NCBI GenBank assembly: GCA_002402375.1
Contig: DHFT01000039.1
Span: 12,809-76,808, forward strand
Source: Elusimicrobia bacterium UBA4817
GTDB lineage: Bacteria > Elusimicrobiota > UBA8919
Reading direction: 5' to 3'
Length of the DNA stretch: 64,000 bases
Part shown: in pieces, positions 491 through 53,857 of the stretch
Position numbering within the stretch: position 1 is the first letter of the stretch
Layout: each line of letters begins with the position of its first letter
Program-made: the position numbers and the translations under genes
The notes under the pieces: model-generated
The model's input: the letters and a program-made list of their open reading frames with translations, nothing else
The model's database searches: none
Told to the model about the DNA's origin: nothing

Positions 491-576
491 TTTTTGAACG
501 CAGATTCCGCAAAAAATCGTTATTTGACTTTATCTGTGTCCTCTATCCGTGTTAATCTGTGGTTTCATTTGTAAAT

Positions 577-648
577 CGTCCCCGACAGGAATCGAACCTG
601 CATCAATGGCTTCGGAGGCCATCACTCTATCCGTTGAGCTACAGGGAC
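577..648 (-). tRNA. tRNA-Arg (anticodon CCG)
   Basis: 72-nt cloverleaf read on the minus strand: acceptor stem GTCCCTG/CGGGGAC (one G-U pair), D-arm AGCTCAACGGATAGAGT, anticodon stem ATGGC/GCCAT with loop CTCCGAA (anticodon CCG), T-arm GGTTCGATTCC, discriminator G, no encoded CCA. Confidence 0.8.
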
Positions 649-675
649 ATAATTACGTATTTTACTTATTTTTTT

Positions 676-2019
676 TTATTCGTCAACTTTTTTCGTATAA
701 AGAATTGAGATTTTGTCTCTATAAATAATCTTCCATTTTTTTTCATCAATTTTCCTTTCCGGTTTCAAAAGTAAAAAATCCGTGTTTGCGAAGATTTCAA
801 ATTTCTCAAAATAATTTTTAAGGAAGAATACGGGATAAACGGTATCATATCTGCCGTCTATTGCTACTTTACACTGCGGATAGAGATGCCAAATAAGATA
901 TTCGCCCCAGTTGAATTCGTTAAAGATATTGCCGCCGAGTTTTTTTTCTTTTAGGAAATTCACCGCATTAGCGGGAAACCTGTCGCTATCCGTGATTTCA
1001 AGCGACGGATTTTTTAGGGTAGCAAAAAGCAGCAGGAAAAACGGAGAAAACGCCGAAATAGTTAAAATTATAACGGTTGCTCTTTTTTTGATGCTTTCAA
1101 AAAACGGGAGCAAAAACGGTGCTACTATGATTGCGAATACAGGGATATGTCTTGAATATCTACTTGCGAATAAAATACTGAGTAGTATAACCAAAGACGA
1201 AAGATATTTTTTTTGGAAAAGATAAATTAGTGAACTGACCGCAGAGATAATTGCAATAAATACGAATAAGTAGCCGACGAGCGGGAAATCTGACAGTGTA
1301 AATTTGCCCCATTCAGTGATGTATTTTGCGGTAAGCGGGTTTGTAAGAGCGCGAAATATTGCTTTCCAAAGATTAACGTGATAGGGCGTTATCAGTGATG
1401 CGAGCGGGAGTGCTATAATAATAAAAAGATGTTTTCGGTTATATTTTTCCAAAAGAAGAATTAGGGCGATTGCTAATCCTACGACAAATCCGCCGTGTGA
1501 GTTTGACCACAAAACCATTGTCGGGAACAGTAAAATCAGAAACGGTAGTTTTCCGGTTTTTTTGTATAAATGTAGTAAAAACCCGAAAATGGAAAGATAA
1601 AGATAAGTAAAAATCTGCGGTCTAAAAGATGTGCCTATAAAAATAAGTGATAAGGCAAAAAGATAGACAGGTAGAATTATTTTGTAATTTTTAGAGTAAA
1701 TCAGCAGAGTTAAAAACAGAAAACATCCGGTAAAAAATCCGATTAAAATTTTAAGAAATATCAGTCCTTTATCGCCGGACTTTTTATATGTTGAGTAAAG
1801 AATAACTTCCGATAACCATTCATGATTTACCCATTTATTGCCGTAAGCGGTATATGAATAAAAATCTATTTTCGGAATATTTTTTGTTTCAACAATTTGT
1901 TTGCCGAAAAAAAGATGTCCCCAGAAGTCCACATCCTGCCATCTGTTGAAAAAGAAAAAAGGGCTTGCTAAAAGCCCCGCAAAAAAAATAATTACAATTT
2001 GTTTTTTTATGTTAGTCAC
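676..2019 (-). CDS. polytopic membrane protein, possibly a GT-C-fold (ArnT/PMT-like) glycosyltransferase
   Basis: 447 aa with about 11 hydrophobic segments and a hydrophilic C-terminal tail; no sharper family assignment possible by eye. Confidence 0.35.
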   Translation of the reverse strand: MTNIKKQIVIIFFAGLLASPFFFFNRWQDVDFWGHLFFGKQIVETKNIPKIDFYSYTAYGNKWVNHEWLSEVILYSTYKKSGDKGLIFLKILIGFFTGCFLFLTLLIYSKNYKIILPVYLFALSLIFIGTSFRPQIFTYLYLSIFGFLLHLYKKTGKLPFLILLFPTMVLWSNSHGGFVVGLAIALILLLEKYNRKHLFIIIALPLASLITPYHVNLWKAIFRALTNPLTAKYITEWGKFTLSDFPLVGYLFVFIAIISAVSSLIYLFQKKYLSSLVILLSILFASRYSRHIPVFAIIVAPFLLPFFESIKKRATVIILTISAFSPFFLLLFATLKNPSLEITDSDRFPANAVNFLKEKKLGGNIFNEFNWGEYLIWHLYPQCKVAIDGRYDTVYPVFFLKNYFEKFEIFANTDFLLLKPERKIDEKKWKIIYRDKISILYTKKVDE

Positions 2020-4622
2020 TTTTGCTTTATAATTTTCTCAACGGATGATATCGCTTCATCCAGTTTTGAAATATCTTTTCCGCCGGCTTGTGCGAGGTCA
2101 ATTTTTCCGCCTCCTCCGCCGCCTACGATTTTTGATATTTCTTTTACAATTATTCTGGCATCAAATTTATCGGCGAGGTCTTTTGTAATTGACACAATGA
2201 GCGTCGGTTTTTCGTCAATAACAGAACCTAATACCACAATGCCTGATTTGATTTTGTTTTTCAGATTGTCGGAAGTGCTTCTGAGTTCATCTATGGATGT
2301 TATTTCCGTTTTTACCGCCAGTAGTTTTATGCCGTTGATTTCTTTAAGGTTTTTCAGTAAATCGTTTTCCTGTATTTTCGGTGTTTTTGAAATGCCCTTT
2401 TCAAGTTTTTTTTTATCGTCTGCAAGTTTTTGGAGTTTTGTAACGACTTCCGCCCGGGATGATTTCAATATCTCGGCCATTTCATCAATCGTTTCCCGCT
2501 GATTTTTCATAAAGTTATACGCTTCCATTCCGGTTATTGCTTCTATCCGCCGAAGACCGCTTCCGATACTGCCTTCGGATAAAATTATAAATTGTCCGAT
2601 TTCTCCGGTTGATTTACAATGAGTTCCGCCGCACAGTTCTACACTTTCAGGATTTTTTTCGTTTCCGGTAATGACGCACCGAACTTTCTCGCCGTATTTT
2701 TCGCCGAATAAAGCGAGCGCCCCCATTTTTTTTGCCTCGGCCACCGTCGTAATTTTTGTCGTCACTTTCAGATTTTCAAGAATTTTTTCATTAACATATT
2801 TTTCTATTAAAATCAGTTCCTCTTTTTTTAATTGTGTCGGATGGGAAAAATCAAATCTGAATCTGTCGTCGCTGACTTGTGAGCCGCGCTGAACGATATG
2901 GGTGCCGATAATTTGTCTTAAACTCTTATGCAAAAGATGAGTAGCGGTATGATTTCGCATAATGTTTTTTCTTCTTTCAAGAGCAATTTCGGCTCCAACC
3001 GTTTCGCCCGTTTTGATAATGCCTTTTATGATTTTTGCTCTGTGGATGATAAGGTTTTCAACCGGTTTCTGCGTATCAATAATTTCTACCTGACTTTGGA
3101 CTTCGGACTTCGGACTTCGGACTATTAACCTGCCCCTATCCCCAACCTGTCCGCCCGCTTCCCCGTAAAAAGGCGTCTCTTTTAGGATTATTTCCACCTC
3201 ATCGCCTTCGTTTGCCTGTTCAATAATTTTTCCGTCTTTTACTATTGCGGCTATTTTGGTTTTTGTTTTTGTCTCATCGTAGCCGGTAAAAACGGTATCT
3301 GCGAATTTTTTGTGAAGTTCAAAATAATTGCTCATATCAATATCTCCCGAACCTTTCCACGAAGTTTTGGAACGATTTTTTTGTTTCTCCATTTCTTCTT
3401 CAAACCCCTTGTCGTCTATAGATATTTCAGATTCAGCCAGAAGTTCTTTTGTTAAATCAAACGGGAAGCCGTAAGTATCATATAGTAAAAATGCATCTTT
3501 CCCGGAAATTGTTTTTCTGGATTTTTTTAATTCTTCAAGCATTTCAATCCCGCGCTCCAGCGTCATTAAAAATTTTTCTTCCTCCATTTTTATTATTCTT
3601 GCTATGTACTCGCGATTCAAATCCAGTTCAGGATATGCCGGTTTCATCGTCTCAACCACTTCAACTGCGATTCTGTAAAGGAACGGTTTGTCCATCTGCA
3701 ATTTTTTGCCGTGAGTAATTGCTCTTCTCAGGATTCTTCTTAAAACATAACCTCTTCCTTCATTGGACGGTAAAATGCCGTCGGAAATAAGAAATGTGAT
3801 TGCTCTCGCGTGGTCAGCAATTATTTTGGTAGATATATCATTTTTAATATCAGACAGGTTTTTTATAAAATCAATAATTCTTTTAAGCTCGTCGGTTTCA
3901 AAATTTGTTTTTGCCCTCTGAACCACCGCCGCCAGCCGTTCAAGTCCCATCCCGGTATCAATATTTTTTTGCGGAAGATTTTTTAATGTGCCGTCTGCTT
4001 GTTTGTCAAATTGCGTGAATACGAGGTTCCATACCTCAATATACCTGTCGCAGTCGCACCCCGGGCCGCAGGTTTTTTTGCCACAGCCGTTTCCTGTTCC
4101 CGTATCGTATAAAATTTCGGAACAGGGTCCGCAGGGACCGGTTTCTCCCATCTGCCAGAAGTTTGACGCCTCGCCTAATTTTACGATTTTGTTTAAAGGC
4201 AGGATTTTTTCCCAGATTTTGTATGCCTCGTCGTCATCTTTGTAGACGGAAGCGTAAAGTTTGTCCTTATCAAGTTTAAGTTCAACGGTCAGAAATTCCC
4301 ACGCCCACAAAATCGCTTCTTTTTTGAAATAATCGCCGAATGAAAAATTACCGAGCATCTCAAAAAACGTAAGATGTCTTGCGGTATGTCCGACATTTTC
4401 AATATCGGATGTCCTGAAACATTTCTGGACGGACGTCGCCCGCTGGTAATCGCTTTTGATTTTCTGCCTGCCTAAAAAATAATTTTTGAACTGCACCATT
4501 CCCGCCGATGTAAAAAGCAGCGTCGGGTCGGAAGAGGGCACCAGCGAGTCGCTCTTAAAAACGGTATGTTCTTTTTCTTTAAAAAACCTCAAAAATTTTT
4601 GTCTGATTTCGTTTGTAGTCAT
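2016..4622 (-). CDS. alaS: alanine--tRNA ligase
   Basis: 868 aa; N-terminus 'EIRQKFLRFFKEKEHTVFKSDSLVPSSDPTLLFTSAGMVQFK', class II catalytic core, editing domain (HxxxH), C-terminal GGGGG segment. Confidence 0.95.
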   Translation of the reverse strand: MTTNEIRQKFLRFFKEKEHTVFKSDSLVPSSDPTLLFTSAGMVQFKNYFLGRQKIKSDYQRATSVQKCFRTSDIENVGHTARHLTFFEMLGNFSFGDYFKKEAILWAWEFLTVELKLDKDKLYASVYKDDDEAYKIWEKILPLNKIVKLGEASNFWQMGETGPCGPCSEILYDTGTGNGCGKKTCGPGCDCDRYIEVWNLVFTQFDKQADGTLKNLPQKNIDTGMGLERLAAVVQRAKTNFETDELKRIIDFIKNLSDIKNDISTKIIADHARAITFLISDGILPSNEGRGYVLRRILRRAITHGKKLQMDKPFLYRIAVEVVETMKPAYPELDLNREYIARIIKMEEEKFLMTLERGIEMLEELKKSRKTISGKDAFLLYDTYGFPFDLTKELLAESEISIDDKGFEEEMEKQKNRSKTSWKGSGDIDMSNYFELHKKFADTVFTGYDETKTKTKIAAIVKDGKIIEQANEGDEVEIILKETPFYGEAGGQVGDRGRLIVRSPKSEVQSQVEIIDTQKPVENLIIHRAKIIKGIIKTGETVGAEIALERRKNIMRNHTATHLLHKSLRQIIGTHIVQRGSQVSDDRFRFDFSHPTQLKKEELILIEKYVNEKILENLKVTTKITTVAEAKKMGALALFGEKYGEKVRCVITGNEKNPESVELCGGTHCKSTGEIGQFIILSEGSIGSGLRRIEAITGMEAYNFMKNQRETIDEMAEILKSSRAEVVTKLQKLADDKKKLEKGISKTPKIQENDLLKNLKEINGIKLLAVKTEITSIDELRSTSDNLKNKIKSGIVVLGSVIDEKPTLIVSITKDLADKFDARIIVKEISKIVGGGGGGKIDLAQAGGKDISKLDEAISSVEKIIKQK

Positions 4623-4664
4623 AAATTACTTGGTGTCTGTTAAAATTATTAAAGATTAGAGAAG

Positions 4665-5039
4665 TTAATGTTGACTATTCACTTCAAAAATATTACCCAT
4701 CTTAAACATTGGCATAAACATAGATATAATTGTTACAAAGAATGTCAATCCTATTATGATAAATAGCGAAACCAATAATAATTTTGTGATTCTGATGTTT
4801 TTCCCTATAACTATATAAATATAAATTGCACTTATTGGCAATAAAATTACAAGCCACATTTTAGATAAAAAAAATATGCTTTTGGTGATTTGCGATAAAT
4901 CAACTCCTAAACTATCAAATATTTCTCTAAACGAAGGAACGACACCAATTAAAATATAAGAACAAACTATTATTGCCGCGAGTAAACCCAATTTAAGGTC
5001 AGTCAATTTAGAAATATTATTTTTAACAAATTTTATCAT
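4665..5039 (-). CDS. small integral membrane protein (3 predicted TM helices), hypothetical
   Basis: 124 aa ORF made of hydrophobic segments; no recognisable family. Confidence 0.4.
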   Translation of the reverse strand: MIKFVKNNISKLTDLKLGLLAAIIVCSYILIGVVPSFREIFDSLGVDLSQITKSIFFLSKMWLVILLPISAIYIYIVIGKNIRITKLLLVSLFIIIGLTFFVTIISMFMPMFKMGNIFEVNSQH

Positions 5040-5078
5040 TTAATTTCCTTATTGCTAAAGCATCAAATCAATGTCTAA

Positions 5079-5120
5079 AATGACGCATACCCGTGAATAC
5101 CATTGAGATTTTATGTTCGG
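5079..5120. repeat. imperfect direct-repeat copy of the purH 3' end (partner at 6351..6391)
   Basis: About 41 bp, 4 mismatches: 'atgacgcatacccgtgaataccattgagattttatgttcgg' versus 'atggcgcatgcctgtgaataccattgagattttatgctcg'. The 6351..6391 copy encodes the purH C-terminus (…MVFTGMRHLRH*). Confidence 0.8.
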
Positions 5121-5148
5121 TATATTTTTCGGAATTGACCGCAGTTAA

Positions 5149-6279
5149 TTATCCGATAATATCAAAATAATTATCCTTAGTTATAACGGTAAATTTAGAA
5201 TTTTTATATGTTTCAACAAAATCTTTCGGCGGTTTTACGCCTTTTGCTTTCCATTTGCATTCAAAACCCCAAAGACATCCAGCCCTTTCTTCAACAAAAT
5301 CAACCTCTTTCTGGTCGTAAGTCCTCCAGAAATATTTATTGCAATGAATATTTTTATAATTTAATTTTTTAATTCTTTCCGAAATACAATAATTCTCCCA
5401 TAATTTTCCTATGTCATCCCGCATAGTAATACTATTATAATTTGAAATAATAGCGTTGCGAACACCGTTGTCCCAAAAATAATATCGCGGTGTTTTTGTA
5501 TATTCCTTCCTTAAATTCCTGCTGAAACCGTATAATGAAAATAACACATAAGATTTTTCAAGTAATTCAAGATACCTCATCACCGTTTTTTTATTTGCAT
5601 TTAAGTTATTAGCGAGTTCAGAATATGAAATATCGTTACCGATTTGGAATGCTATAAGTCGTAATAAATTAAAAATGAATAAAGAGTTTTTGAGATTGTC
5701 CAATTGCAAAATATCTCTCAATAAATAACCGTCTCTTATTGATTCAAGCAGTTCTTTCTTTTCTTTTAAGGATTTTGCCGTCAATACCTGCGGATACATT
5801 CCATATATCAATCTGTCCTCTAAATTTTCCTTGTTTTTCAGAAAATCCTGATAATTGTTTAATTCTAATTGTGATATGGGATAAAAATAATAGAACTTAC
5901 TTCTCTCCACCAGAGGTTCTCCTATTTTGTTTTTTAAGTCAAATGAGGAAGAACCGGAAACAAAAACTGAAATTCCCGGGATATTGTCAACAATAAGTTT
6001 TAGATTGAGTCCGATGTTGGGTATTTTCTGGGCTTCGTCTATAAAAAGATATTTATAACCGGCTGTAAACTTTTCAAGAATGCTTAACATCTGACTTGAT
6101 AATATTTCTAACACATCTAAATTTTCACCATTTACCATTAGAACAGGTTTGTTTTTTAATTTCTCTTTCACCGAATTCATTAGCACGGTCTTACCGGTTC
6201 TTCTGGCACCGAAGAGTCCGATGACTTTGCCTGCCTTTAGAGACGATAGTATCTGATTTTCAATAAATCTGGGTATCAT
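5149..6279 (-). CDS. AAA+ ATPase with DUF4143-type C-terminal domain (COG1373-like)
   Basis: 376 aa; Walker A 'GARRTGKT'; N-terminal AAA domain followed by the extension typical of DUF4143 ATPases. Confidence 0.7.
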   Translation of the reverse strand: MIPRFIENQILSSLKAGKVIGLFGARRTGKTVLMNSVKEKLKNKPVLMVNGENLDVLEILSSQMLSILEKFTAGYKYLFIDEAQKIPNIGLNLKLIVDNIPGISVFVSGSSSFDLKNKIGEPLVERSKFYYFYPISQLELNNYQDFLKNKENLEDRLIYGMYPQVLTAKSLKEKKELLESIRDGYLLRDILQLDNLKNSLFIFNLLRLIAFQIGNDISYSELANNLNANKKTVMRYLELLEKSYVLFSLYGFSRNLRKEYTKTPRYYFWDNGVRNAIISNYNSITMRDDIGKLWENYCISERIKKLNYKNIHCNKYFWRTYDQKEVDFVEERAGCLWGFECKWKAKGVKPPKDFVETYKNSKFTVITKDNYFDIIG

Positions 6280-6339
6280 GGTGTCTGTATTTTAATAAAT
6301 ATATCTGGTTTTGTCAAGAGTTTTTTGTTTCCAAAATTT

Positions 6340-7851
6340 TTAATGACGGAGATGGCGCATGCCTGTGAATACCATTGAGATTTTATGCTCGTTGCAGACG
6401 GTTATTGATTCGTTATCTTTTACCGAGCCGCCGGGCTGAATAATTGCTTTTACGCCGATTTTTGCTGCTTCGTTGACGACATCTTTGAACGGGAAAAATG
6501 CGTCGGAGGATAAAACAAGCGGTAGACGGTAGACGGTAGACGGTAGACGGATTAAGTTCATTTTCATTTTTGCGATTTTTAGTGAGTCAATCCTTGACAT
6601 TTGGCCGCCGCCGATTCCTACCGTTCGGGTGCCTCTGGCAAGGACGATTGCATTTGATTTTACATATTTTGCGACGGTAAAAGCAAATTTTAACGATTCC
6701 AATTCTTCTTTTGCCGGTTTTGTCTTTGTAACAATTTTTAACTTGTCAAAAATTTTGCTGTCCTTTTCCTGAACAAGAAAGCCGTCGGAAATACTGCGGA
6801 ACTCAAGCGATTGAGCAAGTGAGCGATTAAGCGAGTGAGTTAAAACTCTTAAATTTTGTTTTTGCGAAAATATTTTCAGCGCATCTTTTGAATAATTCGG
6901 CGCAATAACACACTCGGTAAAAATTTTTATTACGTCTCTTGCGGTTCTGCCATCCACGATTTTATTAAACGCTACAATTCCGCCGAATGCCGAAACGGGG
7001 TCGCAGGCAAGAGCATTTTTGTAAGCATCAAAAATAGTTTTAGCGGTTGCAACTCCACAAGGATTATTATGCTTTACAATCACACAAGCAGGTTTTTCAA
7101 ATTCGCAAACCAGATTAAAAGCAGAATCCATATCAAGATAATTGTTATAAGAAAGTTCTTTCCCTTGCAGTTGTTTTACACTTCCGACTTCCGACTTCCC
7201 ACTTCCGATATGGTAAACTGCCGCTTTCTGATGAGGATTTTCACCGTACCGCAAGTCGGAAAATTTTTTAAGTCCAACTGTTATTTTTTCTGGAAACTGC
7301 TCGTCGGTAAAATAATTTGAAATAATAGAATCATAATAAGCGGTATGGCTGAATGCCTTTGCCGCAAGTTTTTTTCTGAATGAAAAATCTATCTTTGAAC
7401 TTTTAATATTATCTATGATGTTAGAATAATCTTTCGTGTCGCAGACCGCCAGAACATTCTCAAAATTTTTTGCGGCCGCGCGGAGCATCGCCACTCCGCC
7501 GATATCTATATTTTCAACTGAAGGTTTTTCTTCAAACGGATAAAGATTTATAACGACGATATCAATCGCGTTAATTTTGTGTTTTTTCAACTCGTCAATA
7601 TGTTGTTTTGTCTTTTTTGCCAGTATTCCCGCGTGGATTTTCGGATGCAGTGTCTTTACCCGCCCGTCAAGGATTTCCGGAAAGCCAGTAATTTTTTCAA
7701 CCGAAACGACGGAAATTCCCACTTTTTTAAGAAACGTTACTGTCCCGCCGGTTGATATAATTTTGACATCCAATTTTTTAAGTTCTTTTGCAAATTCAAC
7801 AATTCCGGTTTTGTCCGATACGCTGATTAATGCTGTTTTAATAGTTTTCAT
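6340..7851 (-). CDS. purH: bifunctional AICAR formyltransferase / IMP cyclohydrolase
   Basis: 503 aa; MGS-like N-terminal domain (KTALISVSDKTG…GGT) and C-terminus 'SDAFFPF…IIQPGGS…MVFTGMRHLRH' matching PurH. Confidence 0.95.
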   Translation of the reverse strand: MKTIKTALISVSDKTGIVEFAKELKKLDVKIISTGGTVTFLKKVGISVVSVEKITGFPEILDGRVKTLHPKIHAGILAKKTKQHIDELKKHKINAIDIVVINLYPFEEKPSVENIDIGGVAMLRAAAKNFENVLAVCDTKDYSNIIDNIKSSKIDFSFRKKLAAKAFSHTAYYDSIISNYFTDEQFPEKITVGLKKFSDLRYGENPHQKAAVYHIGSGKSEVGSVKQLQGKELSYNNYLDMDSAFNLVCEFEKPACVIVKHNNPCGVATAKTIFDAYKNALACDPVSAFGGIVAFNKIVDGRTARDVIKIFTECVIAPNYSKDALKIFSQKQNLRVLTHSLNRSLAQSLEFRSISDGFLVQEKDSKIFDKLKIVTKTKPAKEELESLKFAFTVAKYVKSNAIVLARGTRTVGIGGGQMSRIDSLKIAKMKMNLIRLPSTVYRLPLVLSSDAFFPFKDVVNEAAKIGVKAIIQPGGSVKDNESITVCNEHKISMVFTGMRHLRH

Positions 7852-8329
7852 CGGTGTCCTGTCCCGCGCCTTTTATAAATTTTGCTATGACACTTTCAAT
7901 CGTGTCGTAAGAAAATCCCCTGCCGGCAAGAAACTGAAAAATTTTACTCTTTGCTTTTAACGGTTCAAGTTTTTTATATCTCGCAAGTTTATTTTTTATT
8001 GTGTCAAAGGCCAGTTCCGTCTCGTCAATTTCCAGAGAGCTTAAAATTCCGGATGCCGTTTCGCGCGGTATTCCTTTTCTGTTTAATTCCCGCATAATAA
8101 AATTTTTGCTTTTATTGTGACGCAGGCGGTATTCCATCCATTCTTTCGCAAATTTTTCGTCGTCAATCAATTTTAATTTTTTCAATTTTTCTATTACGGT
8201 ATCAACAACGGTGCTATCATAATTTTTTCCGATTTTATCCCGTATCTCTTTTTCGGAATGGTTTCTCCTGGCAAAAAGCCAGAACGCATATTTTTGTGCC
8301 TTGTGATAATTCGTGGATTTTTCTTTCAT
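7838..8329 (-). CDS. recX: RecX family recombination regulator
   Basis: 163 aa, three-helix repeat architecture, 'YAFWLFARRNHSEKEIRDKI' RecX-like N-terminus. Confidence 0.7.
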   Translation of the reverse strand: MKEKSTNYHKAQKYAFWLFARRNHSEKEIRDKIGKNYDSTVVDTVIEKLKKLKLIDDEKFAKEWMEYRLRHNKSKNFIMRELNRKGIPRETASGILSSLEIDETELAFDTIKNKLARYKKLEPLKAKSKIFQFLAGRGFSYDTIESVIAKFIKGAGQDTDENY

Positions 8330-9360
8330 ATTTCAATGATACTATATTTTTTTTCTCCGAGTCCGAGTTTTACTGCGTAATCAAGTTGCACCGAGTAATC
8401 AATATCCGGAAATATGTGCTTGAAAAAATCGCTGCCGAATTTTTTGTTAACCAGTTTAAAAGATGCCGTATCAATCGCTACTGGGTCGCAAGATGCCAAA
8501 ATTCCTATATCGGGAATTTGCGGACTCTCTTTTGTCTCGTAGCAATCGCAGAATTTTGTTATGTAGTTCAGAAAATTTATGTAAATCGCTTTTTTATTTT
8601 TTAAGCACCCTGCGGCATATTCCGCCATTTTTTCCTGTAAGTTTTTCACGGATTCATCCCATGGAATTTTTATCGCATATTGCTCACAGGACAAAATACA
8701 TTCGCCGCACCCGATACAGGCAGTTTTATTTATTATAATTTTTTTATTCACAAGTTTCAAGGCATTTGACGGACACCACTTAATACAATTGCCGCATCCG
8801 ATACACTTTTCAGGTTTAATTTCAGGTTTTACGGAATTATGCATTTCGTATTTTCCGGCCCGTGCCCCGCAACCCATTCCGATATTTTTGATTGCCCCGC
8901 CGAACCCGGAAATCTCATGTCCCTTGAAGTGGGTTAAAAAAATAAATTTATCCGTATAATAAATATCCCGCGCGATTTTTACGGATTTAAAATGTTTTAG
9001 ATTTACATCAACATCTATGTAAGAATTTCCCCGCAGCCCGTCGGCAATTATTATCGGGCATCCGCAAATACCGAAACCGTGTTCAATCGCAATATTAAGA
9101 TGGTCAACGGCATTTGCCCGGCTTCCCCTGTAGATTGTATTTGCGTCGGTTAAAAACGGTTTTCCGCCGCGCGATTTTACAATTTCAACAATCGGTTTTA
9201 CATATTCGGGTTTGATGTAACCCTTGTTTCCTTTTTCTCCGAAATGAATTTTAATTGCTACGAAATCATTTTTAGAAACGAGCGAATTTATTCCCGATTT
9301 TTCCGCTATTTTTTTTACCGTTTCTGCCGAAAACGTCTTTGTGAAATATACATTACTCAT
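8326..9360 (-). CDS. DUF362-domain protein with two 4Fe-4S ferredoxin motifs
   Basis: 344 aa; 'CIGCGNCIKWCP' and 'CIGCGECILSCEQ' CxxCxxCxxxCP clusters embedded in a DUF362-like fold. Confidence 0.6.
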   Translation of the reverse strand: MSNVYFTKTFSAETVKKIAEKSGINSLVSKNDFVAIKIHFGEKGNKGYIKPEYVKPIVEIVKSRGGKPFLTDANTIYRGSRANAVDHLNIAIEHGFGICGCPIIIADGLRGNSYIDVDVNLKHFKSVKIARDIYYTDKFIFLTHFKGHEISGFGGAIKNIGMGCGARAGKYEMHNSVKPEIKPEKCIGCGNCIKWCPSNALKLVNKKIIINKTACIGCGECILSCEQYAIKIPWDESVKNLQEKMAEYAAGCLKNKKAIYINFLNYITKFCDCYETKESPQIPDIGILASCDPVAIDTASFKLVNKKFGSDFFKHIFPDIDYSVQLDYAVKLGLGEKKYSIIEI

Positions 9361-9769
9361 AAAATCCCGTCTTTTTGCGGTTTTCCTTTTTTAGTGATTG
9401 CAGATGTTTGTTTTTTAGAATTTTTTCCTTTGCCCGTTTGGACCGTTTTCTTTTTTGCCGTCTTATCTTTTCTATTCTCTGTTGTTCCTTGCTTTTTATC
9501 CCAAGCAGCATCCGTTCAATTTTATCCGTCAGTATGCGTCTTGCAATAAAACGGTTCAATAACTGCGACCGTTCCCGCTGGCATTTTATTTCAATTCCGG
9601 TCGGAGTATGTTTCAGATAAACGCAAGTTGACACTTTGTTAAGATTTTGTCCGCCCTTGCCGCTTGACCGCAAAAATTTTTCTTCAATATCTTTTTCGTA
9701 TATGCCCAGTTTAAGCATTTTCTCTTCAAGCGATTTTTGTTTTTGCGAATTTATTCCGAGGTTAATCAT
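9353..9769 (-). CDS. arfB: alternative ribosome-rescue factor ArfB (GGQ-motif peptidyl-tRNA hydrolase)
   Basis: 'SSGKGGQNLNKVST' GGQ motif plus a highly basic C-terminal tail. Start moved to the internal ATG (MINLGINSQ…) forming an ATGA overlap with the upstream stop at 9766. Confidence 0.7.
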   Translation of the reverse strand: MINLGINSQKQKSLEEKMLKLGIYEKDIEEKFLRSSGKGGQNLNKVSTCVYLKHTPTGIEIKCQRERSQLLNRFIARRILTDKIERMLLGIKSKEQQRIEKIRRQKRKRSKRAKEKILKNKHLQSLKKENRKKTGFYE

Positions 9770-10138
9770 AATTTTAATTTTCCGATAATGTCGTCGGCAA
9801 TTCTCTGCGGTTTTAAGTTTGAATTGACGCATACAAGCGTGGTTTTTCCGGTGACGAGCATTCGTTTTGTCTCTTTTTCTTCAATTCTGTATGAGAGTTC
9901 CAGACGGGTGCCGGCAGCAGATTCAAGTTGTGTTTGAATAATAATTGTTTCGCCGTATCTTGCGGGTGATTTATAATCTAATTCGGCGTGTGCAACAACA
10001 AACAGAATTCCCTGTTCGGCGAGTTGTTTAACGCTTATGTCTTTTTCCAAAAACCACTCGGTTCTTGCCCTCTCAAAATATGTTAGGTAATTGGCATAAT
10101 AAACTAGGCCGCCGCAATCGGTGTCCTGATAATAAATT

Positions 10139-10149
<11 letters not shown>
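9766..10149 (-). CDS. YbgC/4HBT-family hotdog acyl-CoA thioesterase
   Basis: 127 aa; 'YYQDTDCGGLVYYANYLTYFERARTEWF' hotdog-fold thioesterase signature. Confidence 0.7.
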
Positions 10150-12632
<2,483 letters not shown>

Positions 12633-12639
12633 TGTGCAT

Positions 12640-13050
12640 TTATTTGATTTTTCGTTTTGCTTTTATTTTATCCAGAATACCGTTAACAAATTTTCCGGAT
12701 TCATCCGTGGAAAAATCTTTTGCAAGTTCTATTGCTTCGTTTATTACTGCCTTCGGGGGTGTAGAAAGAGCATAGAGCAGTTCGTAAGAAGCAAGTCGCA
12801 AAATTGCCCTATCAACGGCGGCCATTCTATCAATATCCCAATTTTCCGCCGTCTGTTTTAGCAGTTCGTTTATTTCATCAAGATTTGCAATCGTTCCGTC
12901 AATAAGTTCCTGCGCGAATGCAACAATGTCCTTATCATAATTTTTTGTCTGCCAGAACGCTTTTTCTGCTTCTGCTTTGGTCAATTTACAGACATCCACA
13001 GCGTAGAGTATTTGCATTGCGCATTCTCGCGATATTCTTCTTGAACCCAT
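12640..13050 (-). CDS. nusB: transcription antitermination factor NusB
   Basis: 136 aa; '[18 protein letters not shown]' NusB family; conserved ribH-nusB adjacency. Confidence 0.85.
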
Positions 13051-13097
13051 TTTTTTGCTCCATCAATTCATTCCCCGACGATATAAGAGACCCTTCA

Positions 13098-13130
13098 CTT
13101 CGTTCAGGGTGACACTGTTGAGAAAGTTCA
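13098..13130. repeat. perfect 12-bp-stem palindrome 'tgacactgttga-gaaag-tcaacagtgtca' (REP-like, GTGACAC family)
   Basis: Seen directly between the ribH stop and nusB start; followed by TTTTATT on the plus strand. Its arms share 'gacactg' with the hairpins at 47165..47250. Confidence 0.6.
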
Positions 13131-13136
13131 ACAGTG

Positions 13137-13604
13137 TCATTTTATTACAGTATTCAGATTTGCCATCTCTATTGCCGTCATTGCTGCCTCGGCGCCTTTG
13201 TTGCCGGATTTTGTCCCTGCCCGTTCAATTGCCTGCTCAAGATTATCCGTCGTAATAACTCCGAAAACCGCCGGCACGCCGGTTTTAAGTCCGGTTGATG
13301 CAATCCCTTTTGTTACCTCCGCTGCGATATAATCAAAATGCGGCGTGTCGCCTTTTATGACCGCGCCCAGACAAATCACAGCGTCATATTTTTTTGACGA
13401 TGCGAGTTTGTTTGCCGCAAACGGAATTTCAAAAGAGCCCGGCACCCAAACGATGTCCAGATTTTTTTCGTCGGCATCGTGCCGTTTAAGCGCATCCAAA
13501 CATCCGTCTAAAAGTTTGGAAGTGATGAATTCGTTGAACCTTGAAATCACAATTCCAAATTTCAATCCCTTTGCCACTAGTTTCCCTTCAAAAACCTTTC
13601 CCAT
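13137..13604 (-). CDS. ribH: 6,7-dimethyl-8-ribityllumazine synthase
   Basis: 155 aa; '[14 protein letters not shown]…[15 protein letters not shown]' lumazine synthase signature. Confidence 0.9.
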
Positions 13605-13708
13605 AACACCCCCATTTAACGGCTAACGGCGTGAGAAAGTGAAAAAGAGAGAAAGTAAGAAAGTTAAAACCTTTTTACCTTTTCACGCCTTTTGCCTTTT
13701 CTATTCTT

Positions 13709-14911
13709 TTATAGCAAATGTCCGCATTTTTCCTTTTTAGTTTTCAGGTATCTTTCTGCAAATTTTGATTTAGGTTTTATTTTTATAGGGAGCCGGTTTA
13801 CAACTTTTAGTCCGTAGCCCTCAAGTCCGATAATCTTTTTCGGGTTGTTGGTTAAAAGTTTTATGGTTGAAAGCCCTAAATCTACAAGTATCTGCGCACC
13901 TATTCCGTAATCCCGTAAATCAGGTTTGAAACCCAGTTGTATATTTGCTTCCACGGTGTCATAACCCCTGTCTTGTAATTCATATGCTTTTATTTTATTC
14001 AGTAATCCGATACCTCTTCCCTCCTGATGCATATATAATAAAACGCCGGTTCCTTGTTTTTGGATGATCTGCATTGATTTTTCCAACTGTTCGCCGCAAT
14101 CGCACCGCAGCGAATGAAAAGCGTCGCCGGTTAAACAGGATGAATGCACTCTGACAATAACATTTTTTTTATTTTTGATATCTCCTTTTACCATCGCCAG
14201 ATGATTTTCTTTTTTTAATTTATCCTGATATAAGTGAAGTATGAAATTGCCGTATCTCGTAGGAAAGTTTGGAATCGTTACTATTTTTTCAACAAGTTTT
14301 TCCGTCTGCCGTCTGTATTCAATAATCTGTGCTATTGTAATTATTTTTAATTTATGTTTTTTTGAGAATTTTAGAAGTTGCGTCATTCTTGCCATAGTCC
14401 CGTCTTCGTTCATTATTTCGCAAATTACGCTTGACGGATAAAGCCCTGAAATTTTTGCCATATCCACGCCGGATTCCGTATGTCCCGCTCTGACCAGCAC
14501 TCCGCCTTCTTTATAACGCAGCGGAAAAATATGCCCCGGTTTTATTAAGTCGTCCGGTTTCGTTTTAGGATTAATAATTGTTTTAACCGTCTGCGCCCTG
14601 TCGTGTGCCGAAATGCCGGTGGTTATTCCTTTTTTTGAGTCAACCGAGACGGTGAATGCGGCTTCCTTTACTTCAAGTCCGCTTGTTACCATCGGATGAA
14701 GTTCCAACTCGTCAAGTCGTTTTCCTTCCATAGCAATGCATATTAAACCCCGTCCTTCCTTCGCCATAAAATTTATTTTTTCAGGAGTGATTTTTTCGGA
14801 AGCATAAACTATATCGCCTTCATTTTCCCTTGCCGGGTCGTCAACGATTATAACTGCTTTGCCTTTTTTGAAATCTTTTATCGCTTCTTTAATATCAGAA
14901 AATTCAATCAT
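13709..14911 (-). CDS. ribBA: bifunctional 3,4-dihydroxy-2-butanone-4-phosphate synthase / GTP cyclohydrolase II
   Basis: 400 aa; DHBP synthase N-terminal half (DDPARENEGD) and GTP cyclohydrolase II C-terminal half (Cys cluster 'CLTGDAFHSLRCDCG'). Confidence 0.95.
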   Translation of the reverse strand: MIEFSDIKEAIKDFKKGKAVIIVDDPARENEGDIVYASEKITPEKINFMAKEGRGLICIAMEGKRLDELELHPMVTSGLEVKEAAFTVSVDSKKGITTGISAHDRAQTVKTIINPKTKPDDLIKPGHIFPLRYKEGGVLVRAGHTESGVDMAKISGLYPSSVICEIMNEDGTMARMTQLLKFSKKHKLKIITIAQIIEYRRQTEKLVEKIVTIPNFPTRYGNFILHLYQDKLKKENHLAMVKGDIKNKKNVIVRVHSSCLTGDAFHSLRCDCGEQLEKSMQIIQKQGTGVLLYMHQEGRGIGLLNKIKAYELQDRGYDTVEANIQLGFKPDLRDYGIGAQILVDLGLSTIKLLTNNPKKIIGLEGYGLKVVNRLPIKIKPKSKFAERYLKTKKEKCGHLL

Positions 14912-15527
14912 AAAATCCCGCCTTTTTTAGAGTTTCAAGTGTTATTTTATTTTTTTCTTTTTGTTGCAAAACATATTTTGCAAGAATGTCGGTTTCCAAA
15001 TTAACGGTATCTCCGTTTTTTTTTTCTTTAAGTGTCGTGTTATTTAATGTATGAGGAATTATTGCCGTTGAAAATGAATTTGTTTTTTTTTCCGCTACCG
15101 TTAAACTGATTCCGTCAATAGCCACCGAACCCTTTTCTGCGATATATTTTGACAGATTTTCAGGTATTGAAAATTGCCAAATTTCCGAATTCCCCGATTT
15201 TTTTATTTTTAATATTTTTCCGGTTCCGTCAATGTGTCCCGTAACGAAATGTCCGCCTAATTTACCGTCGGATTTTAATGCTCTTTCAAGATTAATAATG
15301 CTTCCAATTTTTAATTCTCCCAAATTTGTTTTTTTTAAGGTTTCTTCGGAAATGTCAGCCGTGAACTCGTGAACTCGTGAACTCGCTAAATCGCTAACTG
15401 TCAAACAAATACCGCTAACACAAATACTGTCGCCAATGTTTATATCATCAAGTTTTGTCTCGACGGTAATTTGTGTTTTATTTATTTTTTTTACAGTTCC
15501 TAAATCTTCAATTATTCCAGTGAACAT
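14904..15527 (-). CDS. ribE: riboflavin synthase alpha subunit
   Basis: 'MFTGIIEDLGTV' N-terminus and the internal duplicated lumazine-binding repeat. Start moved to the internal ATG. Confidence 0.9.
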   Translation of the reverse strand: MFTGIIEDLGTVKKINKTQITVETKLDDINIGDSICVSGICLTVSDLASSRVHEFTADISEETLKKTNLGELKIGSIINLERALKSDGKLGGHFVTGHIDGTGKILKIKKSGNSEIWQFSIPENLSKYIAEKGSVAIDGISLTVAEKKTNSFSTAIIPHTLNNTTLKEKKNGDTVNLETDILAKYVLQQKEKNKITLETLKKAGFYD

Positions 15528-15531
15528 AGTT

Positions 15532-16545
15532 TTACACAAAGAGCGGGTTTGAAAAAATCCAGGGTTTGAAGCCAAATTTTTTCAGATAACATTCGCATCT
15601 GTATACGCCGTTTCCTTCGGTTTTTACTACTAATGTATCAGAAAAACTTTCTGCGAACAAGTTTCCGTTTTTAATGATTTTTATTTTTGCCGCCCTTGGT
15701 ATTTTAACGGTTATTTTATCATTTTCCCTGTAAAATTGAAAGCCCCTTGCATTTGAAAAATAATCGTTTGAGATAAAAGATTTTCCGTTTTTTAATGCGT
15801 TGTGAATCTTTTCAATATCAGAATCATTTTTTGAAAACGGCTCATCTATCGTTATATGAGTTCGTATAGTTCTAAATGCAAAGTCAAACGGGAAAATCTT
15901 TAAGTTAATGCCCAAATACTTCCTGGTGCTTTCATGGTTGTCAATTTCCCCTATCCCGTATTTTTTATTCGCTTCGCTCACCCCCGATTGAAATCGGGGG
16001 CTACAAGTTATGTCATCCCATCTTCTGAGTGTTTCTTTTTTGGGACCTTTAAGAAAATGTGCCGGGAATAGATAACTCAAAAGTGCCGTCGGATAATTTT
16101 TCAATGTCTTCTGCCAGTCGGTCTGCAAATCCCATATACAAAAGCCGGTGTAATTTTTAACGTTCCAGTCATTCCATCGGTATGATTTTATATCAAACTT
16201 TTTGTTGCCCTCGTGGTCGGGATGTGCGATAAAACCGTACCCGCCCTGACGGTTCACTTCGTCAATATATTTTTGCGGATTATTTTCCTGTTTATCAACA
16301 ACAACTGCATTTTTTATGTCAAAAGCGAGATAATGATTATATCTGGGAGAAATTTCTTCCCCGACAATAACAAGGGTGTTTTTATGCCAGCCCTCGTATT
16401 TTTTTGCTTCAATTGAAAAATGGTCTGTTACGACGATGAAATCAAGTCCGCATCTGTTAGCCGATTCAATAATTTCCTCCGGTTTCCTGTGTCCGTCAAA
16501 CGAATAAAAGGAATGAATATGAATTGCCCCGCAGTAATCAAACAT
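15532..16545 (-). CDS. PHP-domain metal-dependent phosphoesterase, embedded in the rib operon
   Basis: 337 aa; 'AIHIHSFYSFDGH…FIVVTDH' PHP His motifs; overlaps ribD by 8 bp and sits 5 bp upstream of ribE. Confidence 0.7.
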   Translation of the reverse strand: MFDYCGAIHIHSFYSFDGHRKPEEIIESANRCGLDFIVVTDHFSIEAKKYEGWHKNTLVIVGEEISPRYNHYLAFDIKNAVVVDKQENNPQKYIDEVNRQGGYGFIAHPDHEGNKKFDIKSYRWNDWNVKNYTGFCIWDLQTDWQKTLKNYPTALLSYLFPAHFLKGPKKETLRRWDDITCSPRFQSGVSEANKKYGIGEIDNHESTRKYLGINLKIFPFDFAFRTIRTHITIDEPFSKNDSDIEKIHNALKNGKSFISNDYFSNARGFQFYRENDKITVKIPRAAKIKIIKNGNLFAESFSDTLVVKTEGNGVYRCECYLKKFGFKPWIFSNPLFV

Positions 16546-17608
16546 TTAAATATCCCTCAAACAAAAAATCTTCTTCTATTTTTTCTACAGATATATTTTT
16601 AACGTCCGCGGCATTTTTTACGTATTCCGTACTGTTAATAATTTTAGGACAGATAAAAAACATAATTTTATCAACTAATTTTTCTTTAAGAAATGATTTG
16701 GCAACCGTTTCTCCGCCTTCAACAATCAGCGACGAAATACTCATTTTGCCGAGTTTAACCAGCAATTTTTTAATATCCAGAAAATTGTTTTTTAATGGGA
16801 GTTCAATTATCCCTATACCCATTTTTTTAAGTTTTTCTTTTTTAACTCTGTTTGAATTTATTGATGTTGCAATTATCGTTTTTGACTTACCGTTTAGTAC
16901 ATTTGTACTAAATGGAATTTTTAATCCGGTATCAAGAATTACTCTGACAGGATTTTTTCCTTTTCCGTGTGATGTCAGTTTCGGGTTGTCTTTTAATACA
17001 GTATTTATTCCAACCAGTATAGCATCGGTTCGGCTTCGTAATTGATGAACGGTTTCTCTGGATTTTTCAGAACTGAGCCATTTTGAATCTCCGCTCTCCG
17101 TTTTTGTTTTACCGTCTAAAGAGTATGCCATTTTAAGAATTACAAAGGGCGTTTTTGTTTTGATGTATTTTATGTATGTCTCGTTTAATTTTTTTGCTTC
17201 TTTTTCCATCACACTCACTTTACACTTTACACCTTTCACTTTCAACTGTCTTATCCCTTTCCCGCCAACCGCCGGGTTCGGGTCTTTTGTTGCGATAACA
17301 ACTTTTTTTATGCCGCTATTTATTATCTGCGGTACACAAGGCGGAGTTTTTTTATTGTAATGACAGCATGGCTCCAAGTTAACATACATCGTCGCATCTT
17401 TCGGGTTTTTACATTTTTTTAATGCCTCAACTTCCGCATGTGGCCCGCCAAAATATTTATGATAACCTGTTGAAAGAATTTTTCCGTTTTTTACGATTAC
17501 ACAACCGACCATAGGATTCGGACTGACTTTACCTTGTCCTTTTTTAGCAAGTTTTATTACCAATTGCATAAATTTTCTGTCTTCGTCTGTGTAATCTGTT
17601 TTTTTCAT
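16538..17608 (-). CDS. ribD: bifunctional diaminohydroxyphosphoribosylaminopyrimidine deaminase / 5-amino-6-(5-phosphoribosylamino)uracil reductase
   Basis: 356 aa; CMP/dCMP-type deaminase 'HAEVEAL…PCCHY…PPC' N-terminus and RibD reductase C-terminal domain. Confidence 0.9.
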   Translation of the reverse strand: MKKTDYTDEDRKFMQLVIKLAKKGQGKVSPNPMVGCVIVKNGKILSTGYHKYFGGPHAEVEALKKCKNPKDATMYVNLEPCCHYNKKTPPCVPQIINSGIKKVVIATKDPNPAVGGKGIRQLKVKGVKCKVSVMEKEAKKLNETYIKYIKTKTPFVILKMAYSLDGKTKTESGDSKWLSSEKSRETVHQLRSRTDAILVGINTVLKDNPKLTSHGKGKNPVRVILDTGLKIPFSTNVLNGKSKTIIATSINSNRVKKEKLKKMGIGIIELPLKNNFLDIKKLLVKLGKMSISSLIVEGGETVAKSFLKEKLVDKIMFFICPKIINSTEYVKNAADVKNISVEKIEEDFLFEGYLNV

Positions 17609-17632
17609 CTGTGTAATTTGTGTTCTATAAAT

Positions 17633-17668
17633 AAAAAATCCCCAATTTGTCTTCGGGGTTTATTGGGC
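17633..17668 (-). terminator. intrinsic terminator (FMN riboswitch expression platform)
   Basis: Minus-strand 'CCCAATAAACCCCGAAGACAAATTGGGGATTTTTTATTT': G/C stem followed by a U-tract, immediately 3' of the FMN aptamer. Confidence 0.65.
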
Positions 17669-17701
17669 GAATAAATTCACCTTTACAAAAAACATATTAT
17701 A

Positions 17702-17843
17702 CTCTTCTATCATCCGGACTTTACCGTCGGTATCTGAATTTCACAGATTCGGTCCCGAACATTTTTAATAAAAAATGTGAGAGATTAGCGGACTTTTACC
17801 GCCGGTCGGGAATTCCTGTTTAGGTCACCCCACCCCGAAGAGT
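17702..17843 (-). promoter_or_regulatory. FMN riboswitch (RFN element) leading the rib operon
   Basis: The minus strand reads 'CTCTTCGGGGTGGGGTGACCTAAACAGGAATTCCCGACCGGCGGTAAAAGTCCGC…GGGACCGAATCTGTGAAATTCAGATACCGACGGTAAAGTCCGGATGATAGAAGAG', matching the RFN consensus blocks GGGG(C/T)GGGTGAAATTCCC, GACCGGCGGTA.AAGTCCGC and CCGACGGTAAAGTCCGGATG. Confidence 0.85.
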
Positions 17844-17849
17844 AATGTA

Positions 17850-17877
17850 ATTATACAAAAAATAAAATAAATGTCAA
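17850..17877 (-). promoter_or_regulatory. sigma70-type promoter (TTGACA-N16-TATAAT) for the FMN riboswitch / rib operon
   Basis: The minus strand reads TTGACA, 16 nt, TATAAT, ending about 7 nt before the aptamer 5' end. Confidence 0.5.
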
Positions 17878-18797
17878 TTAAATTTTTTGGAAAAAGAAAT
17901 ATAAGTGGTTCTGTCAAACACGCTGTTGACGGCACTTGCAAAATCAAATCCGAAATCCTTCCATAGTATTCCGATCCCGAAATTTGTTCCGTTAATTTTT
18001 CCCGCTTTGTTGAGATATCCGCCTCTTAAAAAAAGCCAGTTGAGGTAAGAGTACTCGCCGCTGAATCTCGGACGGAATATATCATCTTTTTCCCGTAAAA
18101 AATCAAAAGATACGTCAAAATTATTTTCGCGGTTATTTAACAGGGTATATGACAGTCCGCATCGGACGGAACTTGGCAGGTCGTCTTTTACAGGGTCGTT
18201 GGAATAAATGACCTTTGTTCCGAAATTTTCGCCGGAAAATCCGAGTTTAAGATTTCTTACAAAATCAACTTTATATAAAATTCCGAAATCAATTGCTTGG
18301 GCGTTCCCGATAGTTTTTCCAAAAATGGGATTTTTTTCATATCTGTAAATGTATTTTAGATTTATTCCGAAGGAGAGATTGTGAAAAAGATTTCTTCCAT
18401 AGGCGACAGAAAACGCCCAGTCGTTCCATATCAGTTCGCCCATATCGTAGTTAAATTCGTCGGTAACGGGTATCGGGGTAATTCTGTAACTTAATATGCC
18501 GATAGCCATGGCGCCATGTTTTTTTAGCGACAACAGTCCGCCGAGATACTGCATAACGGCATCGCCTTGAGGCGCCGGCGAATGGGAAAAAGTTATTTCG
18601 CTTTCCGAATCCGCAATGCCTGCCGGATTATGAAAAAATGATGATGCGTCTAATTTTGTTGCGGCGGATGTTTCAGCTAAAGAAATTATTCTTGCGCCTC
18701 CTGCCAGTTTCAGAAAATCGGCGCCGGTGTGAGTGGAAGCGTAGAGGCAATTAAAAATTAAAAATGGAAAATTAAAAATTAAAATGATTGTTTTCAT
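17874..18797 (-). CDS. FadL/PorV/PorQ-like outer-membrane beta-barrel protein (T9SS-associated?)
   Basis: 307 aa, signal peptide, N-terminal 'GADFLKLAGGARIISLAETSAATKLDASSFFHNPAGIA' FadL/PorV-like motif, alternating beta-strand pattern; tandem paralogue of the next gene. Confidence 0.5.
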   Translation of the reverse strand: MKTIILIFNFPFLIFNCLYASTHTGADFLKLAGGARIISLAETSAATKLDASSFFHNPAGIADSESEITFSHSPAPQGDAVMQYLGGLLSLKKHGAMAIGILSYRITPIPVTDEFNYDMGELIWNDWAFSVAYGRNLFHNLSFGINLKYIYRYEKNPIFGKTIGNAQAIDFGILYKVDFVRNLKLGFSGENFGTKVIYSNDPVKDDLPSSVRCGLSYTLLNNRENNFDVSFDFLREKDDIFRPRFSGEYSYLNWLFLRGGYLNKAGKINGTNFGIGILWKDFGFDFASAVNSVFDRTTYISFSKKFN

Positions 18798-37323: not shown

Positions 37324-37358
37324 AAAAAAAGGTTTTTCAAATTTTAACAGGAAATCCA

Positions 37359-47110: not shown

Positions 47111-47289
47111 TTTTCCTCCAAAATTTTTATTTACTATTTTTCCATTTCTACTTTTAACCTGACGCGTAGCGTCACACTGAACTTGATTCAGTGTCTCGTT
47201 GAGAGATGCCGAAACTAGTTCGGCATGACACTTCGTGTCACTTTTAAGTTTTTATTTTCATTTCTGCCTCCCTTTCTCTCGAAGAGAAT

Positions 47290-47440
47290 TTTATTGCAGA
47301 CAGACAGATTTCCTGACTCAGGTTCGTCCGAAATTTCGCCTTCCCATCCCTATTTATCCGGACAGTGGCATTTATGAAATTTCATCCCCTTCACAGTAGC
47401 GGGACTGTTCCGGAATTACACCGGATTCCCTATTCTGCCT
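47290..47440 (-). promoter_or_regulatory. cobalamin (B12) riboswitch #1
   Basis: The minus strand reads 'AATAGGGAATCCGGTGTAATTCCGGAACAGTCCCGCTACTGTGAAGGGGATGAAA…AATGCCACTGTCCGG…GGGAAGGCG', containing the B12 box GCCACTG and the conserved GGTG.AA.TCC / CCCGC.ACTGT elements. Confidence 0.85.
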
Positions 47441-53850: not shown

Positions 53851-53857
53851 ATTTTTA

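Follow-up and report, generated by a model that had tools for sequence, protein, structure and literature searches.

The stretch analysed here (hereafter the window) comprises 64,000 nucleotides (nt) of the genome of Elusimicrobia bacterium UBA4817 (assembly GCA_002402375.1, contig DHFT01000039.1, positions 12,809 to 76,808), and near its left end it carries alaS, the gene for alanyl-tRNA synthetase (AlaRS), within which lies a short tandem array of a heptanucleotide that is translated in frame. Three features define this locus:

2016 to 4622, minus strand: alaS, intact, encoding an alanine--tRNA ligase of 868 amino acids (from domains, homology and alignment).
3092 to 3123, minus strand: heptanucleotide array in alaS (from Tandem Repeats Finder, direct reading of the sequence and translation).
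3075 to 3134, minus strand: length-variable AlaRS loop, G497 to D516 (from loop lengths in homologues and a structure model).

The identity of the host gene is clear. Its product is 100% identical to the alanine--tRNA ligase HAX61590.1 of an Elusimicrobiota metagenome-assembled genome (MAG), matches solved AlaRS catalytic fragments in the PDB with E=2e-141, and contains the Pfam domains tRNA-synt_2c (PF01411), tRNA_SAD (PF07973) and DHHA1 (PF02272). All of the parts that characterize an AlaRS are present, including the class II catalytic and tRNA-recognition region, an editing tRNA_SAD domain with HxxxH and CxxxH motifs, and the C-terminal DHHA1 domain; the alignment shows no variation at the editing residues H558, H562, C664 and H668. 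The gene is the sole alaS copy in this genome, and is essential.

Tandem Repeats Finder reports the array with a period of 7, 4.6 copies, 96% matches, a score of 57 and the unit GACTTCG. The plus strand of the window reads GACTTTGGACTTCGGACTTCGGACTTCGGACT at these positions and its reverse complement, which lies within the open reading frame (ORF) at 2016-4622(-), is AGTCCGAAGTCCGAAGTCCGAAGTCCAAAGTC, resolving on the coding strand into A-(GTCCGAA)3-GTCCAAA-GTC. This segment encodes V501-R-S-P-K-S-E-V-Q-S510 in the context ...LIVRSPKSEVQSQVEII..., with the 7-nt unit falling within codons 501–511; as seven is not divisible by three, each of the three full units is read in a different phase, to give V-R-S-P-K-S-E, followed by V-Q-S. 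The array and its translation are as given in a preliminary description of this DNA made from its sequence, and so is the placement between conserved blocks, with GGQxGDxG on one side and DTQKP on the other. Exact period-7 runs with at least three copies occur four times in the window, against 0.02 expected from order-2 Markov shuffles, and the alaS array qualifies as a long-unit simple sequence repeat (SSR), i.e. uninterrupted head-to-tail units of 5–11 nt beyond what composition predicts. Independent JGI, ENA, NCBI and Logan assemblies agree on it, and the identical array recurs in a sister species, in six independent contigs taken from assemblies of JGI and ENA; it is therefore real, non-random, in frame, and not an assembly artefact, a possibility that the preliminary description had raised.

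An AlphaFold2 model of the AlaRS, built from 55 homologues with a mean predicted local distance difference test score (pLDDT) of 85.5, places this segment in a beta-hairpin with strands at 497–502 and 508–521 flanking a turn at 503–507, and with pLDDT values of 83–87 at the tip. The repeat is therefore predicted to encode the tip of a surface beta-hairpin, which in the model belongs to a beta-barrel (residues 452–546) that separates the tRNA-recognition helices from the editing core; the earlier label of an editing-domain junction is thus a fair one, as the barrel precedes the editing core. The stretch between G497 and D516 is 18 residues long, whereas the modal length is 12, shared by 59 of 118 homologues and by 42 of 70 loci of other phyla (range 8–29). 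The preliminary description had put the excess over the Escherichia coli enzyme at 6–7 residues and had interpreted it as an expansion of 21 bp (3 x 7). The orthologue alignment does reveal a longer loop, with an excess that by this comparison is six residues (18 nt) and not seven (21 nt). The E. coli string that it quoted also differs from the enterobacterial sequence compared here, that of Pectobacterium, in which the loop between the invariant G and D is GDQGELKNAGVSFAVQDTQK.

Comparison of the DNA at the alaS site in ten relatives, with AlaRS identities to the window of 71–89%, shows that the array is old (W denotes the genome of the window, and L-numbers denote loci from other genomes). 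W shares a heptamer-periodic segment of equal length with relatives whose AlaRS identity is as low as 71% (L001–L007, L010, L011, L024 and L091), a distribution at odds with an expansion that is recent or specific to this alaS. The units vary considerably. GTCCGAA is found in W, L001–L006, L007 and L009, the last having a 30-nt insert inside the fourth unit; L010 contains GTTAAAA-GTGAAAA-GTTAAAA, L011 and L091 contain ATTAAAA-ATGAAAA-ATTAAAA, L024 contains ATCAGAG-ATCAGAG-GTCAGAA, and L092 contains 2.6 copies of AAGTTAG plus other sequence. In the AT-rich arrays a G in unit 2 averts an in-frame TAA codon. The array of L008 has decayed with its length unchanged, and L090 has a canonical 12-residue loop without an array, despite being 86% identical to the array-bearing L010. 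Unit identity within one genome ranges from 0.64 to 0.93, while that between orthologous positions of different genomes is often merely 0.43–0.57; copies within a genome being more alike than orthologous copies points to concerted evolution, and the array is ancient, with its unit turning over in concert. An early impression that the array is strikingly conserved between W and L001 was dropped, as the absence of synonymous changes in 10 array codons against a background of 25% is not significant (P=0.058). All eight full-length members of two 90% clusters encode VRSPKSEVQSQ. The heterogeneity in copy number that the preliminary description proposed to look for is absent from these eight assemblies, and a metagenome pattern scan for alaS alleles with three units more or fewer, designed with flank anchors and two variable gaps, matched only the known L001 contig and hence gave no strain information. 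We note that the alaS gene of L092 (9343-12022) is split into ORFs of 214 and 673 amino acids by a frameshift, which is probably a sequencing error; the heptamer array was ruled out as its cause, as the frameshift is situated at an A9 run.

Related arrays are found in other genes of the window and at one intergenic site:

6520 to 6550, minus strand: purH site 2, coding CGTCTAC x4.4, perfect (Tandem Repeats Finder and orthologue comparison).
7180 to 7208, minus strand: purH site 1, coding GGAAGTS x4.1 (Tandem Repeats Finder and orthologue comparison).
12032 to 12061, minus strand: ligA, coding CTTCCGA x4.3, perfect (Tandem Repeats Finder and orthologue comparison).
13631 to 13664, no strand assigned: intergenic octamer array between ribH and ribBA, GTGAGAAA x4.2 (Tandem Repeats Finder).
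15360 to 15385, minus strand: octanucleotide array in a riboflavin synthase (ribE-like) gene, coding CGAGTTCA x3.25 (Tandem Repeats Finder and orthologue comparison).
38196 to 38227, minus strand: array of an AATTAAA-type heptamer, x4.6, in a MiaB-like gene (UPF0004/radical-SAM) (Tandem Repeats Finder).

The two purH sites are the most informative with respect to copy number. At site 1 the sequences of W, L024 and L090 exceed those of L008 and L011 by exactly 21 nt, and at site 2 W exceeds L001 by the same amount. The site 2 units of other genomes are CRCTTCC in L011, CACTTAC in L024 and CATCTTC in L092 (4.7 copies, perfect), and L090 has a segment of the same length without a repeat. At this site L008 contains an octamer array, CTCAATCT x5.2, which is derived from its own flanking codons (GAC TCA ATC T) and is exactly 24 nt longer than L001. 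Changes by whole units between relatives take the form of exact three-unit differences between species at purH; at alaS no variation was seen in eight assemblies of two species. The idea that three-unit steps preserve the frame, put forward in the preliminary description for alaS, finds its clean 21-nt and 24-nt differences at the purH sites and does not account for the 18-nt excess at alaS itself.

The other genes illustrate the turnover of units. Unit identity within arrays is 0.8–1.0, as against 0.43–0.71 between orthologues. The ligA arrays of W, L001, L008 and L011 are equal in length and different in unit; that of W is perfect and that of L008 has an internal identity of 0.93, yet the pair share an identity of 0.46, which can be set against a nucleotide identity of about 86% between the alaS genes of W and L008. 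The ribE-like gene of L008 contains CGATTTCG x2.9 at the site of the octamer array of W, and the MiaB-like gene has AATTAAA x4.4–4.6 at one site in three genomes (window 38196-38227, L094 9061-9091 and L096 9085-9116).

These arrays belong to a class that is abundant in the clade. In 346 kb of clade sequence there are 29 arrays of period 7 where 0.3 are expected from composition-matched shuffles, and 14 of period 8 where 0.4 are expected; none of period 4–6 occur in these 346 kb, and the excess at periods 9–15 is just 2–4-fold. Arrays of period 7 number 10.6 per 100 kb in the clade and 0.55 per 100 kb in other bacteria, the control set being 1.27 Mb from 77 loci of other phyla (an AlaRS scan of contigs added only three clade members). 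The hosts in the window include purH (at two sites), ligA, ribE, ribD and the MiaB-like gene. Copy numbers lie between 4.1 and 4.9 in 18 of 24 genic heptamer arrays, matching the prediction of one original copy plus three added units. Among the loci from the alaS region, 24 of 33 period-7 arrays are inside long ORFs, and those in the mutS neighbourhood are mostly intergenic, so that the class is not predominantly intergenic in the way of dispersed fixed-unit heptamer repeats. Many different unit sequences occur, with the GGAAGTN/NACTTCC and AATTAAA families recurring across sites more often than in shuffles. Sampling amounts to about 20–64 kb per genome, and the arrays are likely to be genome-wide, as judged from the two syntenic neighbourhoods that were sampled. 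Within the window, 10 of the 12 arrays with 7- or 8-nt units are in the first 20 kb (3000-20000), and the other 44 kb has two AT-rich ones, at 38196 and 44585.

The alaS repeat is in frame and old, evolves in concert, and occupies a hairpin tip that tolerates it; it is part of a lineage-wide class with three-unit steps. We consider it probable that it is a short non-triplet coding microsatellite, a by-product of the lineage-wide multiplication of 7- and 8-nt units and not a functional element; no evidence of function for the array was found in this analysis. The origin of such arrays would be slippage during replication, or template switching, of 7–8-nt units in the local sequence, with loops that may evade MutS, and within ORFs purifying selection would pass only net changes of three units, taking about 1.x copies to 4.x. 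They would be tolerated only in loops that accept about seven extra residues, out-of-register pairing or conversion within the array could homogenize the copies as new unit variants sweep through it, and an array may end by an exact three-unit deletion or by decay through point mutation. The unit-length spectrum, peaked at 7–8 nt and without arrays of 4–6 nt, matches that described for long-unit SSRs by Mrazek et al.

The window has a mismatch-repair locus of its own, identified by domain searches:

32626 to 34296, minus strand: mutL, full domain set.
34723 to 37359, minus strand: mutS, full domain set.

The two genes are neighbours, and in relatives a small PilZ-like ORF is located between them. 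Loss of mismatch repair was rejected as a cause of the arrays, since both genes are intact; loops of 7–8 nt would escape MutS, to judge by data from E. coli.

Several observations weigh against the by-product interpretation or qualify it. Three-unit steps do not fit every site, the ligA site being 15 nt longer than in L009 and L090 and the alaS loop 18 nt longer than the mode. Gaining three units at once from about 1.x copies is not a usual outcome of slippage, and at alaS the intermediates would be lethal frameshifts. No copy-number variation was seen at alaS among the eight full-length members of the two 90% clusters, which represent two species, and ongoing slippage is thus not shown. Between W and L009 none of nine array codons differ, against a synonymous background of 51% (P=0.0016), which either conversion or constraint could explain. 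The clade was sampled in two syntenic neighbourhoods only, that of alaS and that of mutS. Finally, non-orthologous arrays share units (distance of at most 1, reverse-complement pairs included) in 23 of 296 pairs compared with 9.9 in shuffles, in a test that counts orthologous arrays repeatedly and whose P value is optimistic; sharing beyond the shuffles is not predicted by purely local slippage. Individual cases of sharing are conspicuous. In W, the purH site 1 (7180-7208) and ligA (12033-12061) arrays, 4.8 kb apart, constitute an inverted repeat of 29 nt with 97% complementarity that does not extend beyond the arrays themselves; the purH site 1 and site 2 arrays of L092 (8282-8300 and 8928-8960), 630 nt apart, are exact reverse complements; and the alaS array of L011 (11496-11527) is identical over 32 nt to the MiaB-like array of L096, including the G that averts TAA, with L011 alaS resembling that of the distant L091 solely within 100 nt around the array. 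The inverted pair, the reverse-complement pair and the identical 32-nt arrays in different genes and genomes suggest that the clade could have a process that makes and homogenizes arrays of 7–8-nt units, exchanging units between distant arrays in either orientation. We regard such a process as improbable, and the same low probability applies to the templated genome-wide 'heptamer drive', in place of passive local slippage, that forms part of it.

Among the other explanations, selection at the protein level is the least unlikely, although we still think it unlikely: the extra hairpin residues would be the object of selection, e.g. in a longer hairpin touching the tRNA or another domain, and the DNA periodicity merely the historical route to them. 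Length is kept in 9 of 11 lineages (L009 and L092 are longer and L090 is shorter), even where the repeat has decayed as in L008 and L024, the segment is modelled as an ordered hairpin, and at purH site 2 the motif [RHK]-[LFV]-P is found at both ends in all unit variants and in the non-repeat segment of L090. However, L090 manages with the canonical alaS loop in spite of its closeness to L010, the residues are diverse (VRSPKSEVQS, VKSEKLKLEI, IKNEKLKIEC and IRDQRSEIVA), and the insert is missing from most AlaRS proteins. A recent 21-bp expansion specific to this alaS on a canonical loop, with copy number perhaps still varying, can claim that 4.6 copies is about 1.6 plus 3, that the loop exceeds the homologue mode, and that three-unit steps are real at purH; orthologue DNA has already largely refuted it, with the same-length segment in W, L001–L007, L010, L011, L024 and L091 and the same array with a 30-nt insert in L009, and the 18-nt excess, the equal length of the eight cluster members from two species, and a metagenome scan yielding no variant beyond the known L001 contig leave it very unlikely. 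We give almost no credence to a contingency (phase-variable) locus like neuO or to an assembly artefact. A heptanucleotide unit in a coding region is indeed the neuO architecture (PMC8653822), and the unit here is a non-triplet one within an ORF, but alaS is an essential single-copy gene rather than a dispensable, usually surface-related gene that is switched on and off, the array has just 4.6 copies without length variants, and all assemblies are in frame with equal copy number; the concurrence of the JGI, ENA, NCBI and Logan assemblies speaks against an artefact.

Two further explanations operate at the level of nucleic acids. The arrays could have been written or overwritten from templates elsewhere, by ectopic conversion, by template switching between arrays or by a very small mobile element, and the unit sharing in excess of shuffles, the array-confined inverted repeat of W, the reverse complements in L092, the 32-nt identity between L011 and L096, the local similarity of L011 to L091, and inserts of 24–30 nt within some arrays are all in keeping with this. 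Yet the L008 octamer was clearly made from its own flank, the sharing test recounts orthologous arrays, AT pressure together with stop-codon avoidance can cause convergence on AATTAAA-type units, and no further copies of the inserts were present among the loci compared, so that we judge this decidedly improbable. The array could instead be a functional element, either a platform for a single-strand binding protein that reads heptads or an mRNA site of regulation or translational pausing. The conservation between W and L009 above the synonymous background and the persistence of arrays as arrays over long times agree with this, as does the binding of cold-shock proteins to heptamer repeats (PMC4679880). 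It is nevertheless highly improbable, as the units at one site differ between species, some lineages have lost their arrays outright, five arrays fold as RNA no better than shuffles (z-scores of -0.8 to +1.9), and no Rfam families were matched at the arrays.

The by-product interpretation places the arrays beside several known systems. Heptanucleotide SSRs are the most over-represented long-unit class in prokaryotes, with polymerase slippage as the proposed cause (Mrazek, Guo and Shah 2007, as summarised in PMC4679880 and PMC4692102), and in the same literature long-unit simple sequence repeats (LSSRs) are reported to be rare in coding regions when the unit length is not divisible by three. 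Like the LSSRs so described, the arrays have head-to-tail 7-nt units far beyond chance, a peak at 7 nt and many units per genome; unlike them, most are inside housekeeping ORFs where three extra units keep the frame, and they are kept at orthologous sites across species with concerted turnover of the unit. The poly-psi heptanucleotide variable number tandem repeat of neuO, in prophage CUS-3 of E. coli K1, has 14–39 copies, located at the 5′ end of a surface-modification gene that is not essential, undergoes on/off switching at a high rate, and gives a full-length protein only at copy numbers that are multiples of three (PMC8653822). The 7-nt unit in a coding region, the correspondence of three units to a 7-residue peptide and the multiple-of-three logic are shared with alaS (PMC8653822), whose array in contrast has 4.6 copies, is located in the middle of an essential gene and does not vary in length. 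Heptamer repeats with fixed units include the short tandemly repeated repetitive (STRR) sequences of cyanobacteria and GGGNATC of Xanthomonas and Nostoc (PMC4692102), and TAACTGA of the Beggiatoaceae (PMC4679880). These likewise have about 2–6 copies with a preference for about four, and are abundant in particular lineages, and the relatives studied here also have genome-specific intergenic families of 8- and 11-mers; however, the fixed-unit repeats draw on one or a few unit sequences per genome and are found mainly between genes, being under-represented in ORFs, whereas the arrays described here have many units and are in frame within genes. Published non-coding repeat classes of 20–21 nt and 52 nt resemble them in conserving unit length as unit sequence varies by locus and species, although in-frame heptamers are not addressed there and the method subsumes 7-nt units under 14-nt ones. 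The literature searched contained no account of in-frame heptamer arrays in Elusimicrobiota or of concerted evolution among them.

The interest lies mainly in how the class behaves and less in the single case of alaS. Essential genes would be expected to be cleared of non-triplet microsatellites, and here such arrays persist across species at fixed loop sites in alaS, purH, ligA and ribE, with three-unit steps and concerted turnover of the units. They offer a natural system for asking why 7-nt units dominate prokaryotic long-unit repeats (a question since 2007), how unique sequence gives rise to microsatellites, and how reading-frame selection shapes indel spectra and the evolution of loops in conserved proteins. 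On the practical side, lineage-specific inserts of 7 or 8 residues can mislead the alignment and annotation of MAG proteins.

Other repeats accompany the genic arrays. The octamer array at 13631 to 13664 exemplifies the non-genic members of the class. A dispersed, genome-specific intergenic octamer family, CGTATCA(N)/TGATACGT, is found at L097 12578-12713, 18037-18115 and 19560-19588 and at L091 8689, 13351, 22112 and 22184; L097 and L091 are from one genome (GCA_016928195.1), and one of the loci consists of two inverted arrays just downstream of mutS. A dispersed intergenic 11-mer family, ACACGGAACAG and its complement, is present in L094 (GCA_016218625.1) at 5612-5697, 13201-13241 and 17671-17712 and includes an adjacent inverted pair, with similar 11-mer arrays at L001 18680, L091 19879 and L097 7011. 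A Y1 transposase (PF01797) gene adjoins the alaS neighbourhood in one strain of the sister species (L003 56-1006) and may bear on these inverted repeat families. In-frame, non-repeat inserts of 24–30 nt are located within heptamer arrays of alaS, ligA and purH (L009 11525-11554, L092 294-317 and L001 7213-7236), two of them with GC-rich stems (AATCCC..GGGATT and GCCCG..CGGGC). They are reminiscent of the small dispersed repeats (SDRs) embedded in cyanobacterial heptamer arrays; further copies, sought among the loci compared as a test of an SDR-like mobile element, were not found.

The remainder of the window contains a number of other recognizable features. There is a tRNA-Arg(CCG) gene at 576-649(-), and a flavin mononucleotide (FMN) riboswitch upstream of the rib operon at 17698-17846(-). 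Between 17874 and 23316 a pair of weak PorV-like ORFs is followed by two peptidases of the clostripain (C11) family that bear type IX secretion sorting tails. Two cobalamin riboswitches are located at 47286-47470(-) and 53731-53901(-), one of them upstream of a TonB-dependent receptor and the second barely above threshold. At 31119-32579 a protein of 486 amino acids with ankyrin repeats is encoded (Ank_2, E=4.5e-111), a type that is uncommon in bacteria.

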